Positions 14,774-59,692 of a stretch of 64,000 nucleotides of DNA are shown in pieces. The position numbers and the translations under genes were made by a program. Position 1 is the first letter of the stretch. Each line of letters starts with the position of its first letter. Origin of the DNA: an uncultured Clostridia bacterium. GTDB lineage: Bacteria > Bacillota > Clostridia > TANB77 > CAG-508. The notes beneath the pieces were generated by a model. It was not told the origin of the DNA and did not search any database. It saw only the letters and a list, made by a program, of their open reading frames with translations. The stretch lies in the NCBI GenBank assembly GCA_944393375.1, contig CALXZX010000005.1, forward strand, positions 1,293-65,292, written 5' to 3'.

Positions 14774-14970
14774 GTTTCTGTTCAGTGTTCACTTCCTCGA
14801 AGGTATATATATTATATTTTTCGCTATCCCAACACGTTACATACTCTAACTAAAACAGCTCCCACGGGACTGTCGCTGATTTAATAAGAGTATGTAACGT
14901 GTCGGTCCCCACGAAACTCGCTTAAAATATAATATATATACCTTCGAGGAAGTGAATATTGAACAGAAAC
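14774..14970. repeat. 197-bp nested palindromic element (REPIN/MITE-like)
   Basis: 47-bp outer arms 14774-14820 / 14924-14970 (2 mismatches, both G-U compatible on +); perfect 16-bp inner stem 14832-14847 / 14887-14902. Confidence 0.9.
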
Positions 14971-15008
14971 ATTAAGAATGAGAAATTATAAAAAAATACT
15001 AATTAGAA

Positions 15009-15037
15009 TTGAAAAATAAAAAGAATTCATGTATAAT
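15009..15037 (+). promoter_or_regulatory. sigma-A promoter (lepB)
   Basis: TTGAAA-17-TATAAT. Confidence 0.6.
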
Positions 15038-15072
15038 AAATTAGATTTTTTAAAGTTAAAGGAGAGAGAAAG

Positions 15073-15711
15073 TTGAATCCAAAGATAAAAGAGATATTAG
15101 AATGGGTATATTGTATTATTATAGCAATTGTATTGGCACTATTATTTAGATATTTTATCGGAACTCCAACAATTGTACAACAAGTTTCTATGTATCCAAC
15201 CTTAGAACAAGATCAAAGATTGTGGTTAAATAGATGGTCTAGAACTACGAAAACTTTACCAGAAAGAGGAAAAATCATTACATTTGAAGCACCAACAAAA
15301 AAATTCTATACAAGTTCAGAAATCGATACAGACAATCCAATTGCTCAATATGAAAATGAACCAACCAATATATTTGGAAAATTTGTAAAATATGTATTAG
15401 AAATTGGAAAAGAAAGTTATATAAAAAGAGTGATAGCACTTCCAGGAGAACATGTAGAAATAAAAGAAGGAAAAGTATATATAAATGGAGAAGAATTAGA
15501 CGAGCCATATTTACAAGATGGAGTAGTAACAGATGTGGAAGGTACAGGTTTTTCAGATTTTGTTGTTCCAGAAAATAGCGTATTTGCAATGGGAGATAAT
15601 AGAACACATAGTACAGATTGTAGAGCATTTGGTTGTATACCATTAGAAAAGATAGAAAGTACAGTAGCCATAAGAATTTGGCCATTAAACAAATGGGGAC
15701 ATGTAGATTAA
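15073..15711 (+). CDS. lepB: signal peptidase I
   Basis: SMYPTL (catalytic Ser), YIKRVIALPG (catalytic Lys), GDNRTHSTDCR. Confidence 0.96.
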   Translation: MNPKIKEILEWVYCIIIAIVLALLFRYFIGTPTIVQQVSMYPTLEQDQRLWLNRWSRTTKTLPERGKIITFEAPTKKFYTSSEIDTDNPIAQYENEPTNIFGKFVKYVLEIGKESYIKRVIALPGEHVEIKEGKVYINGEELDEPYLQDGVVTDVEGTGFSDFVVPENSVFAMGDNRTHSTDCRAFGCIPLEKIESTVAIRIWPLNKWGHVD

Positions 15712-15829
15712 AAGATAGAGATTATTTAGGTCTCTATTTTTTATTGTCTTAGATGACAAGGTTGTGGGGGACTAGGTCTGCAATCTTTAATTGCTATGTC
15801 GGGTCAGGTTCCTATTTGTTTAGTTCTGG

Positions 15830-57353: not shown

Positions 57354-57515
57354 AATGAAATCTCCTATTTAACAACTTTTTTTCAAATTATTTAATAAAA
57401 AGTTATTTATTTGCATTTTTATAATAGTATTGCTAAATTTTTTAAATTTATACTAGTTTTTATATAACAAAAATGATATAATAAAAGCATAGTGTTATGA
57501 AAGGAAAACAATAAT

Positions 57516-58658
57516 ATGAAAGAAGAAATCATTGATAAAATTACTTCAGTAATATTATTTTTAGTTATTATAGGGATTTTTGCAGTAATTATTGTCTTTT
57601 CTATTATTGCAATCCAAGAATTTTCAGGAGAAGACAAAGAATTAACATTTGCAGAAAGCTCAGGAAATATTGCTACAAGTGAAGACAAAACTGTAGAAGA
57701 TGATATTGAAGTACCAGCAATTGTTGAAAATCCGATTAGTTCAATTGAAAAAAATAATAGTAATACAAATACAGATTATTCAAATGTACAAGTAGATAAA
57801 TATTTTTATAATCAATTAGATGAAAAATCAAGAATCATATATAGAGCATTTGAAAGTAATAAAGAGCAAATGAAAACAGGAACATATCAAATCGAATTAG
57901 GAACTAGTTTTTCAGATATATTATCTCAAAGTAATGGACAAGAATTATTAGGAGAATATTATCAATCTGCAATTGAAGCCTATACATATGATAATGCTGA
58001 AGTTTTTTATTTGAGCCCTAGAAAAATGTATTTAAATATTGAAACTACGACAAGAGGGGGCACTTCAACATATAATGTGTATATCAATTCTGGAAATGAA
58101 GCAAATTATTTAGCAGAAGAATTTACTTCAAAACAAGCGATTGACCAAGCAATTGCACAAATTGAACAAGTAAAAAATCAAATTTTACAAAATAAAACAG
58201 GAAATACATATGAAGATGTCAAAATGGTACATGACTATTTAGTAGATACCATTAATTATGATAGTAGTTTATCAAAACAAAATATATATAATATTTATGG
58301 AGCATTGGTAAATAGAGAATGTGTATGTGAAGGATATGCGAGAGCTTTTAAATATTTATTAGATGAATTAGATATACCTTGTGTTATGGTAATTGGAACT
58401 GGAACAAATTCACAAGGTGAAACAGAAAATCATGCTTGGAATTATGTACAATTAAGTGGAAATTGGTATGCAGTAGATACTACTTGGGACGATCCAGTTG
58501 TCATAGGTGGAGGAACTGCAAGTGAAGAATCTAGATATAAATATTTCTTAGTAGGAAGAGAAATTATTGATCAAGACCATAGTCCAAGTGGACAATTTAC
58601 AGAAGGTGGAAAAGTATTTAGTTATCCAAATGTAAGTTATGAAAGCTATTCAAATTAG
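57516..58658 (+). CDS. membrane-anchored transglutaminase-like domain protein
   Basis: N-terminal TM; VCEGYA (Cys), HAWN (His), DTTWD (Asp) triad. Confidence 0.85.
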   Translation: MKEEIIDKITSVILFLVIIGIFAVIIVFSIIAIQEFSGEDKELTFAESSGNIATSEDKTVEDDIEVPAIVENPISSIEKNNSNTNTDYSNVQVDKYFYNQLDEKSRIIYRAFESNKEQMKTGTYQIELGTSFSDILSQSNGQELLGEYYQSAIEAYTYDNAEVFYLSPRKMYLNIETTTRGGTSTYNVYINSGNEANYLAEEFTSKQAIDQAIAQIEQVKNQILQNKTGNTYEDVKMVHDYLVDTINYDSSLSKQNIYNIYGALVNRECVCEGYARAFKYLLDELDIPCVMVIGTGTNSQGETENHAWNYVQLSGNWYAVDTTWDDPVVIGGGTASEESRYKYFLVGREIIDQDHSPSGQFTEGGKVFSYPNVSYESYSN

Positions 58659-58720
58659 ATAAACATGTGAATAAAAATAGAAATTTGAAATAAAAAGAAT
58701 TTAGCAAAGAAAGGAGTTAG

Positions 58721-59608
58721 TTGTGTAGCATAAGCGAGCAACAAACTAATATGATATTAGATGAACTATTTGGAAATAAAATAAAAGTATATGCATTTGT
58801 TGGACCATCCGGAACAGGAAAAAGTTATCGTGCACAAATGGTAGCAAGTGAAAGAAATATAAATTATATTATAGATGATGGATTATTAATTAAAGATAAT
58901 GAAGTATTAGCCGGAGAATCAGCAAAAAAAGCGCCTACAAAAGTAGGAACAGTTAAACATGCATTATTTTATGAAAAAGAAGAAAGAGAAAAAATTATAA
59001 AAGCACTAAAAAAAGAAAGACCACAAAGTATCTTAATACTAGGTACATCTGATGGTATGGTACAAAAGATTGCGGCCAATTTAGGATTGCCTGAAATTAG
59101 TGAATATATCTATATAACAGATGTAGCAACAAAACAAGAAATGGAAACAGCAAGAAGAATTCGTGTAACAGAAGGAAAACATGTTATTCCAGTACCAACT
59201 TTTCAAATTAAAAAAGACTTTTCTGGATATTTATTAGACCCATTACAAATTTTTAAATCAAAAGGAAAAGGGCAAAAACCATATATATCAGAAAAATCTA
59301 TCATAAGACCTACATTTAGTTATCTTGGGAAATTTACAATATCTGATTTGGTATTTAGACAAATATTAGAATATATTGCTGTTAAAACACCAGCTATTTA
59401 TAAGATAACAAGAACAAGAGTAGAAAACTATGGTGAAGGTGCCAAAATTTATGTAGAAGTCACGGTTATGTATGGATATAATGTAATAAATGGAATTAAA
59501 GATTTTAAAGATAGAGCAAAAAAAGAAATAGAAAAATTAACAGCCATGAATGTTGTAGAATTGGATGTGGTTGCAAAAAACATTTATGTGCCAGAAAAGC
59601 AAGATTGA
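58721..59608 (+). CDS. P-loop plus Asp23/Gls24-like domain protein
   Basis: GPSGTGKS Walker A; C-terminal EIEKLTAMNVVELDVVAK Asp23-like segment. Confidence 0.75.
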   Translation: MCSISEQQTNMILDELFGNKIKVYAFVGPSGTGKSYRAQMVASERNINYIIDDGLLIKDNEVLAGESAKKAPTKVGTVKHALFYEKEEREKIIKALKKERPQSILILGTSDGMVQKIAANLGLPEISEYIYITDVATKQEMETARRIRVTEGKHVIPVPTFQIKKDFSGYLLDPLQIFKSKGKGQKPYISEKSIIRPTFSYLGKFTISDLVFRQILEYIAVKTPAIYKITRTRVENYGEGAKIYVEVTVMYGYNVINGIKDFKDRAKKEIEKLTAMNVVELDVVAKNIYVPEKQD

Positions 59609-59692
59609 ACGTTAGGGACGTGTCAAATCGTTCAAAAAATGAACGATTTGGCCTGTCCCCAATGTTCAAAAAATGAACAAAAGGGACAGACT
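59606..59692 (+). repeat. 87-bp palindromic element, family C copy 2
   Basis: Near-identical to 45360-45446; begins with the TGA stop of the upstream gene. Confidence 0.92.

Follow-up and report, generated by a model that had tools for sequence, protein, structure and literature searches.

We consider it likely that the intergenic DNA of the window (the whole 64,000-nt stretch of contig CALXZX010000005.1 analysed here) has been colonised by several families of short hairpins resembling repetitive extragenic palindromes (REPs) and REP doublets forming hairpins (REPINs), and that each family has its own cognate Y1/HUH transposase of the REP-associated tyrosine transposase (RAYT) or TIRYT type. 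An earlier reading of the same letters, the original prediction, had listed repeat families A, B and C and a further palindrome at 14774, all sharing the word GGGAC, and had tied them to a RAYT. All of the repeats that it listed are where it placed them (four copies of A, five of B and two of C), and their assignment to the REP/REPIN type, with a RAYT-type Y1 transposase, is upheld: family A brackets the RAYT gene of the window, and inverted repeats with GGGAC flank about 74 of 79 RAYT homologues of the Bacillota.

The source of the window is an uncultured, spore-forming Clostridia species with a low GC content that lives in the chicken gut. It has 28.7% G+C, a strong purine skew on the + strand and, among its genes, spoIIGA, sigE, sigG and GerAC (sporulation), secG, rnr and ferredoxin; chicken-gut metagenomes contain DNA identical or near-identical to it. 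The closest relatives in the genome collection are uncultured Clostridia/'Eubacteriales' metagenome-assembled genomes (MAGs), with DNA identity over 20 kb of 92.3% for CASEIX and 90.3% for CASEOS. Loci of other genomes fetched for comparison are given L-numbers below (L072, L206 and so on).

GGGAC/GTCCC is the most enriched 5-mer of the intergenic DNA (7.3 kb, separated from coding DNA with a hand-made gene map of the window), ahead of the Shine-Dalgarno words: 19 occurrences were observed against 1.66 expected. In coding DNA it is under-represented, with 12 observed against about 19 expected. The word is thus as conspicuous as first supposed, at 11.5-fold enrichment between genes and none within them. 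Most copies do contain GGGAC or GTCCC, but not all, as had been claimed: the A copy at 50461 has GAGGACGG, and the degenerate B arm at 50630 has CACCACC.

Family A is a hairpin of 39-40 nt, AAAAGGGa-TTTTGgGGACGGACTCAaAT-TTCCCTTTTT, with stems, T-runs and loops of 13-23 nt. Its copies and its transposase gene are as follows, with z scores for folding as single-stranded DNA.

18195-18234, + strand: family A REP, left flank of the RAYT gene, AAAAGGGG-ATTTTGGGGACGGACTCAAAT-TTCCCTTTT, 4 nt after the ferredoxin stop; fold z -2.96.
18254-19009, + strand: A-type RAYT/TIRYT-like Y1 (HUH) transposase with a helical C-terminal extension, between the A copies at 18195 and 19051.
19051-19086, - strand: family A REP, right flank of the RAYT gene, inverted relative to 18195, stem partly decayed; fold z -1.45.
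19855-19894, - strand: family A REP between the convergent thiamine pyrophosphokinase (TPK) gene and thiamine pyrophosphate (TPP)-enzyme (porB-like) gene; fold z -4.42.
50461-50500, + strand: family A REP, GAGGACGG variant, 7 nt after the secG stop; fold z -3.98.

The A-type RAYT is thus bracketed by an inverted pair of its own family, 18195 (+) and 19051 (-). Its protein matches Pfam Y1_Tnp (E 4e-11), and its best NCBIfam match is REP_Tyr_transpos at 64 bits (curated cut-off 80), against 27 bits for IS200. Its sole sequence relative in the PDB is 4ER8. An AlphaFold model of the protein (41 homologues; pLDDT, the predicted local distance difference test, 89.7) has 4ER8, E. coli TnpA-REP bound to a REP hairpin, as its top Foldseek match (E 2e-7), followed by the IS608 and ISDra2 transposases. 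HxH and Y-I-H-x-N-P are invariant across the 41 homologues. Model residues 153-245 form an extra all-helical region; Pfam finds no helix-turn-helix (HTH) domain in the window protein, and weak HTH_24 and HTH_23 matches occur in the RAYT homologues of L413 and Syntrophomonas. Orthologues of the A-type RAYT, retrieved through the protein database (70-90% identity), keep the synteny ferredoxin -> RAYT -> TPK/porB, with the same family A hairpins on either side; because of this conservation we read the gene as inherited at a fixed site, which is the behaviour of a RAYT and not of an insertion sequence.

The start of this gene is unusual. No ATG, GTG or TTG is present where the homologues start; the window, L286, L289 and L290 have ATA-CCn-AGA there, and translation probably begins at a non-canonical ATA, 7 nt downstream of a strong ribosome-binding site, AAAGGAGG (window 18239-18262). 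The N-terminal IPRRER..YYHIM is kept between species with 70-90% identity, and in L286 an in-frame stop lies immediately upstream. Together these sequences suggest a conserved AUA start and, with it, possibly weak translation of the transposase.

Family B has five arms in the window, built of the words TTGGGACA, TTGGGGACGTTTCC and TTTGGACA; a full unit is about 55 nt, (A)TGTCCAnTTGGGGACGTTTCCnTTTGGACA-TTTT-GTCCAnTTnGGGACACATCT. Family C is a cluster of about 87 nt made of three alternating units, and its two copies in the window are 87% identical.

43736-43764, - strand: family B hairpin unit, TGTCCAA-ACAGAAACGTCCCAA-TTGGACA, between spoIIGA and sigE.
50513-50661, no strand: family B inverted pair upstream of rnr, with arm 50513-50545, an 84-nt AT-rich spacer and degenerate arm 50630-50661.
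52799-53104, no strand: B composite, with inverted arms 52799-52830 and 53065-53104 and a 233-nt, largely palindromic interior (52832-53064).
45360-45446, + strand: family C cluster, TGAACG..GGGACGTG.. / ..CTGTCCCC.. / ..GGGACAGACC, whose first TGA is the sigG stop; fold z -5.72.
59606-59691, + strand: family C cluster, copy 2, whose first TGA is the stop of the open reading frame (ORF) 58721-59608; fold z -8.40.

Orthologues of the second C copy are present in L206 and L215, with stems GGAACG/CGTTCC. Compared with shuffled sequences, A and C have a much stronger fold as single-stranded DNA (z -3 to -8.4). The B pattern GGGACGTTTCNNTTTGGACA was found in more than 116 stretches, nearly all from uncultured gut Clostridia MAGs with several per genome, and the C pattern in more than 104 stretches of the closest relatives; both counts are lower bounds, and the MAGs are incomplete.

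The original prediction made a single RAYT machinery responsible for all of these families, and here the evidence turns against it. The window does have one visible RAYT, of the A type (18254-19009); GGGAC is invariant in all families and RAYT clades, so that some cross-recognition is conceivable, and units of A, B and C frequently lie side by side or within one another. But each family flanks its own RAYT lineage elsewhere. Other RAYTs flanked by B or C elements were indeed found, B in many loci and C in two. Perfect inverted B units bracket RAYT homologues in L069/L179, L031/L143, L138, L141, L144, L146, L147, L175 and L178, and these proteins are 29-38% identical to the RAYT of the window; in L413 and L354, C-type units enclose RAYTs of a third lineage, and the three lineages are 29-38% identical to one another. 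A B-clade RAYT (L186) and a C-type one (L413) occur together in a single MAG, CAJFLB. Among the 80 RAYT loci listed, 14 of about 40 B-bearing assemblies have a RAYT (hand count). The nearest relatives carry a B-type RAYT, CASEIX in L147 and CASEOS in L146, and contigs in the Logan collection from three samples holding the organism of the window cover the CASEIX gene with about 9% divergence and at a depth like that of the window. Since divergence and depth both match, the window species probably has a B-type RAYT elsewhere in its genome. We therefore regard mobilisation of A, B and C by the RAYT at 18254-19009 as improbable, the more so as the loop variant co-varies with RAYT clade, and prefer separate transposases for the separate families.

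That co-variation emerged from a survey of the flanks of 79 RAYT-homologue loci from Syntrophomonas, Geosporobacter, Desulfosporosinus, Gracilibacillus, Lachnospiraceae, Tissierellia and gut Clostridia. Most of these flanks have the form stem / (G)GGGAC(G/A)... / stem, for example GGCAGGCAA-GGGGACGGTTCTG-TTGCCTGC in Syntrophomonas, AGACAAG-GGGACGGTTCT-CTTGTCT in Geosporobacter, AGGGACAA-AGGGACAGGTCCC-TTGTCCCT in Gracilibacillus and GAGCCATTA-GGGACAGTCCC-TAATGGCTC in Lachnospiraceae. Families A, B (in its hairpin form, as at 43736) and C all match this plan, with loops GGGGACGGACTC for A, GGGGACGTTTC for B and GGGACGTGnCAAA / GGGGACAGG for C. On a neighbour-joining tree of the RAYT proteins GGGAC does not vary, and the 3' half of the loop differs by clade: GGACTC in the A clade, GGTTC in environmental Bacillota, CAGG/CAGT in Bacilli, Desulfosporosinus and Lachnospiraceae, and GTTTC in the B clade of gut Clostridia. 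Of 555 occurrences of GGGAC[GA], 119 (21%) fall in the loop of a hairpin whose perfect stem has at least 6 bp, against 34 of 1580 random positions and 19 of 851 occurrences of other G-rich hexamers (about 2.2%), and the hairpins involve dozens of unrelated stem sequences.

A possible objection is that unrelated G+C-rich palindromes in AT-rich DNA share GGGAC by coincidence. The families may have been chosen by eye on the motif, and one hairpin family (F, below) and two arms are without it. Against this stand the rank of the word as top intergenic 5-mer, its recurrence at about 74 of 79 independent RAYT loci from many orders, and a placement in loops ten times that of the controls; coincidence is effectively refuted.

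A second objection concerns the B pairs, and possibly other elements, which could be miniature inverted-repeat transposable elements (MITEs) of an insertion sequence with a DDE transposase, their 30-nt arms serving as double-stranded terminal inverted repeats (TIRs). Inverted B pairs do surround interiors of 84-233 nt, one of which recurs between B arms in three genomes, and the GGGACA/TGTCCA words at a spacing of about 10 bp look like transposase-binding ends with multiple sites. However, the sole type of gene seen between inverted B arms is a Y1 transposase. Furthermore, the boundaries of B units are sharp, with no conserved flank and no target-site duplication outside the units, and most B units are solo or tandem. 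The interior of the composite is flanked by B arms in L090 and L102, and an interior of this type also lies within C/B-hybrid arms in L102. A DDE origin is thus very unlikely, and we retain the Y1 transposases as the probable agents of family B.

The interior at 52832-53064 is itself a dispersed, largely palindromic module. Its size is about 190-230 nt, and copies with 85-92% identity occur in L090 (6763-6955) and, twice within 8 kb, in L102 (2880-3021 and 6899-7056). It can encode a peptide of 23-28 aa, MT.(V/A)NEIILEKIKVSNRRISNL.., which has the appearance of an HTH fragment. It also holds the only difference between strains of the same species, at window 52935-52945, where AGGAGAATCTC forms a perfect 36-nt hairpin and AGGCACCTCTC (as in L102 and L090) disrupts the pairing; the difference looks like gene conversion inside the palindrome.

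The original prediction also placed most elements 0-7 nt after a stop codon. Eight of the 12 arms do lie at -3 to +7 nt, but 19051, 50513, 50630 and 53065 are not adjacent to a stop. The adjoining distances are +3 for 14774, +4 for 18195, 0 for 43736, +7 for 50461 and +3 for 52799; the 19855 element is 2 nt from the stop of the minus-strand TPP-enzyme gene, and in the C copies at 45360 and 59606 the TGA of the element is itself the stop codon of the upstream gene. Of the arms lying away from stops, 19051 is at +41, 50513 follows an A element, 50630 is 16 nt before the rnr ATG, and 53065 is 17 nt from a small minus-strand gene. Across the window and 80 loci centred on rnr, the motif comes to within 15 nt of the gene terminus in 37 of 119 cases for 3' ends and in 13 of 105 for 5' ends. 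The share of spacers that contain it is 11% for tandem, 18% for convergent and 15% for divergent ones. The proposed seeding at gene 3' ends is accordingly right as a bias toward stop codons and wrong as a rule: the bias is real, yet not exclusive, and all spacer types are occupied.

The 5' ends of the elements carry stop codons. C units start with TGAACGTTAG, which makes TGA and TAG available in two frames, A units often have a preceding T that yields TAAGGGA, and several genes in relatives terminate within an element. Donation of stops by family C is seen at TGA 45360-45362 and 59606-59608 of the window and, through the TAG of GAACGTTAG, in relatives (L102 2780-2789, L354, L413 and L206); the final one to three codons of such a gene derive from the element.

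Elements are gained, lost and replaced between species that are about 90-92% identical in DNA. In L072 (about 90% identical) the sigG stop region has a plain terminator in place of the C cluster, and the spoIIGA-sigE position of B 43736 holds an unrelated spacer of about 200 nt. Among 16 relatives compared downstream of secG, the more distant species have a plain terminator where the others have a family A hairpin. The secG-rnr and post-rnr spacers of relatives are occupied by five or more GGGGACGG families, and L206 has the remnant TTAGGGCAATTGCCCTAA alone where the window has the 306-nt B composite. Conversely, in a comparison with CASEIX, CASEOS and two other relatives, positions 55656-55661 are empty in the window and filled in L206/L207 (a 117-nt doublet), L209 (a nested A-in-B) and L213 (the TGTCGCA family), and a C element after cmk is present in L209 and L213 and not in the window. 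We also considered in-frame length differences of rnr in relatives as possible REPs and rejected them; they are low-complexity coding insertions.

One further family, missing from the original list, occupies the same hot-spot spacers and is common in L209 and L213, in tandem arrays:

62200-62230, + strand: family F hairpin, TGTCGTG-TAGACAAACGGACTCTA-CGCGACA, without GGGAC, having ACGGACTC in common with the family A loop.

Near it, the 354-aa ORF 61035-62099 (window 61013-62104) is absent at the orthologous position in L206, L207 and L209, which have short spacers with REP-type repeats instead; it is a gene-level indel beside repeat elements.

The turnover bears on whether the elements are host sites kept for their function, such as terminators, mRNA-stabilising hairpins or sites for nucleoid or sporulation regulators. 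They are tightly packed against stop codons and ribosome-binding sites, the strains are identical at them, and TGTCCAA may be a 0A-box-like word. At secG, moreover, a family A hairpin (A-run, stem, T-run) replaces the plain, ancestral terminator hairpin that more distant relatives have at the same place. Yet presence, absence and replacement by other families at one site in species about 90-92% identical, the occupation of all spacer types, and stems that vary freely around conserved loops all speak against selected host sites. The elements also consistently bracket RAYT genes, and an exapted function cannot explain origin or spread. We therefore hold a host-site origin to be highly improbable, and favour repeats mobilised by RAYTs that the host may have put to use.

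The 14774 element has to be set apart from these families, even though the original prediction counted it among the GGGAC/RAYT set.

14774-14970, no strand: nested palindrome of 197 nt, with outer arms of 47 nt and inner arms of 31 nt, between histidine kinase and signal peptidase genes.

It is single-copy and has no relative among the loci and metagenomes searched, and so cannot be assigned to the set. No homologue was found in about 3.5 Mb of related loci, and a metagenome scan with an 18-mer from its arms gave 17 single matches of which none aligned past the seed, and which are therefore chance matches. Contig depth is about twofold in its arms only, as expected of a single-copy inverted repeat. 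All strains carry it; the orthologous spacer of L043 does not. As RNA it folds at -106.8 kcal/mol (z -17.5), its GGGAC/GTCCC words sitting in unpaired parts; the apical GGGACTGTC resembles the GGGGACTGTCCC loops of L195, a likeness too slight for assignment to a RAYT system. A known RNA was considered and rejected: at E<=1 Rfam matches only plant miRNA precursor models, far below threshold and by shape alone, and at the gathering threshold the Rfam scan of the window found nothing but one tRNA. The flanks ATTAAAGA and ATTAAGAA resemble a 7-8-bp target duplication. The element may be a lone MITE or a long structured RNA.

From the observed anatomy of the repeats, their association with RAYT genes, the co-variation of loop variant with clade, the hairpin potential and the turnover between species, we propose the following mechanism. 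Each family consists of a short hairpin with a family-specific stem and a loop made of an invariant GGGAC(G/A) and a family-specific 3' half; each cognate transposase gene is probably single-copy and lies at a fixed chromosomal place between two inverted copies of its own family. The transposase would bind the hairpin extruded in single-stranded DNA, reading the GGGAC core of the loop together with the clade-specific part, and by cutting and rejoining would copy or move single hairpins or inverted doublets in trans to intergenic sites elsewhere, its own gene staying put. Copies would pile up against gene ends because they survive where they do no harm, and landing on the last codons of a gene would be tolerated because the 5' ends of the elements bear stops (TGA and TAG in TGAACGTTAG, TAA in TAAGGGA). 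Family A, with its A-run, stem and T-run, could act in place of an intrinsic terminator.

Several points weigh against this interpretation. First, a strain check within the species of the window (look-ups with SecG and signal peptidase, 8-10 assemblies each) found no presence/absence polymorphism at any element examined; the identity of these strains gives no sign of ongoing or recent activity. Second, divergent spacers hold elements almost as often as other spacer types, so that targeting of 3' ends is not demonstrated. Third, the elements are not uniform: family F has no GGGAC, the arms 19051 and 50630 are decayed, and single B arms of the GGGACA type do not fold alone. With a loop criterion of 3-8 nt, a simple terminator scan passed over the family A hairpins, since their loops are longer than that. 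Fourth, the RAYT of the window falls below the curated NCBIfam cut-off (64 against 80 bits) and is without a canonical start codon, and the B- and C-type RAYTs lie outside the window, their presence in the genome resting on metagenome contigs. Finally, binding, cleavage, dependence on single strands, mobilisation in trans and any terminator role are our inferences.

A wider proposal is possible but tentative, and we think it fairly unlikely: that all RAYT paralogues of this Bacillota-wide clade use the loop word GGGAC as nick or recognition site, in the manner of the stem-loop of a Rep origin, that stems and loop 3' half set specificity, and that the elements are routinely exapted as stops and terminators. 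Such loop recognition would differ from that of classical RAYTs, which recognise GTAG at the foot of the hairpin. If true, a modular loop code would allow the quick birth of REP families by stem replacement, which would account for the presence of at least five families in the same spacers of near-identical species.

Two further features of the window concern its genes. Positions 2643-4045 and 27540-28945 show inverted similarity of 71-76% over about 1.3 kb, within ORF 2370-4361 (+) and ORF 27017-29404 (-), which appear to be diverged paralogues in opposite orientation. At 6346-7476, four tandem repeats of about 267-279 nt, 72-78% identical and with Pro/Glu-rich linkers, lie in the 1167-aa ORF 4634-8137, which suggests a repetitive surface-type protein.

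Among known systems, the IS200/IS605 insertion sequences (IS608, ISDra2) share the HUH/Y1 catalytic fold, and recognition of imperfect hairpins in single-stranded DNA is an established mode in that superfamily. Unlike them, the transposase gene of the type found in the window is syntenic across species and does not appear to be mobile or multi-copy, and it is the hairpins, not the gene, that are dispersed; no conserved sequence outside the units, such as an IS200/IS605-type insertion target, was found. The pneumococcal BOX and RUP and the Bacillus cereus bcr1 are likewise short, modular, structured intergenic repeats beside coding regions in low-GC Gram-positives. These are not tied to Y1 transposases, and RUP and bcr1 have TIRs and target duplications.

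To our knowledge, REP/RAYT biology comes almost wholly from Proteobacteria. Like the classical gammaproteobacterial systems (E. coli TnpA-REP, Pseudomonas REPINs), the one described here has a vertically inherited, probably single-copy Y1 gene with inverted palindromes as flanks, palindromes that appear to be dispersed extragenically and often in inverted doublets or clusters, a separate family for each RAYT, and a fold nearest to 4ER8. It differs from them in its Firmicute host of 29% G+C, in the additional C-terminal domain of about 100 aa, and in having its conserved word in a loop of 12-20 nt. No GTAG/GTGG tetranucleotide is present 0-2 nt 5' of the hairpin foot, the conserved word being GGGAC(G/A) in the loop.

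The closest known system, likened by features rather than by phylogeny, is that of the TIRtrons or TIRYTs (TnpA-Y1 subclass 2.1). Di Nocera, De Gregorio & Rocco (2013, PMC3733652) described RAYT-like genes with long inverted-repeat flanks under the names 'TIRtrons' and 'TIRYTs'; many of these share GGGGWSAS, and some TIRtron repeats belong to moderately abundant repeat families. TIRYTs were equated with TnpA-Y1 subclass 2.1, which has C-terminal HTH extensions, by Quentin et al. (2018, PMC6006769), who found no REP-like sequences near subclass 2.1 genes. In the published accounts the flanks are termed TIRs 'rather than typical secondary structures'. Group 1 RAYTs, which occur in Clostridia with modestly abundant flanking 16-mers (Bertels et al. 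2017, PMC5581495), are probably the same system.

As in TIRYTs, the RAYT-like Y1 protein is longer than classical RAYTs, with a helical, possibly HTH, C-terminal extension, inverted repeats with a word akin to GGGG(A/T)(C/G)A(C/G) bracket the gene, the flanks can belong to dispersed families (as singles, dimers and clusters), and a genome can hold several genes with their own repeats. Unlike TIRYTs, most motifs here are GGGGACGG (A) or GGGGACGT (B), where position 7 of GGGGWSAS is G instead of A; agreement with that word is confined to family C, in its second unit (GGGGACAG). The published accounts also differ from ours in that here the motif lies in a hairpin loop, on freely varying stems, in many Bacillota and in at least three to four co-resident families. 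Where the TIRYT/subclass 2.1 literature holds only the motif and the statement that REP-like hairpins are missing nearby, we find that this branch probably does generate hairpin repeat families, several per genome. For annotators of these MAGs, stops, intercistronic spacers and apparent terminators will often come from mobile repeats. The system was thus known in outline; what is added is a Firmicute clade with co-resident families, an invariant core located in the loop with clade-specific partners, and rapid turnover at gene boundaries, which together make it a convenient comparative system for studying substrate reading by Y1 enzymes and the birth of REP families.

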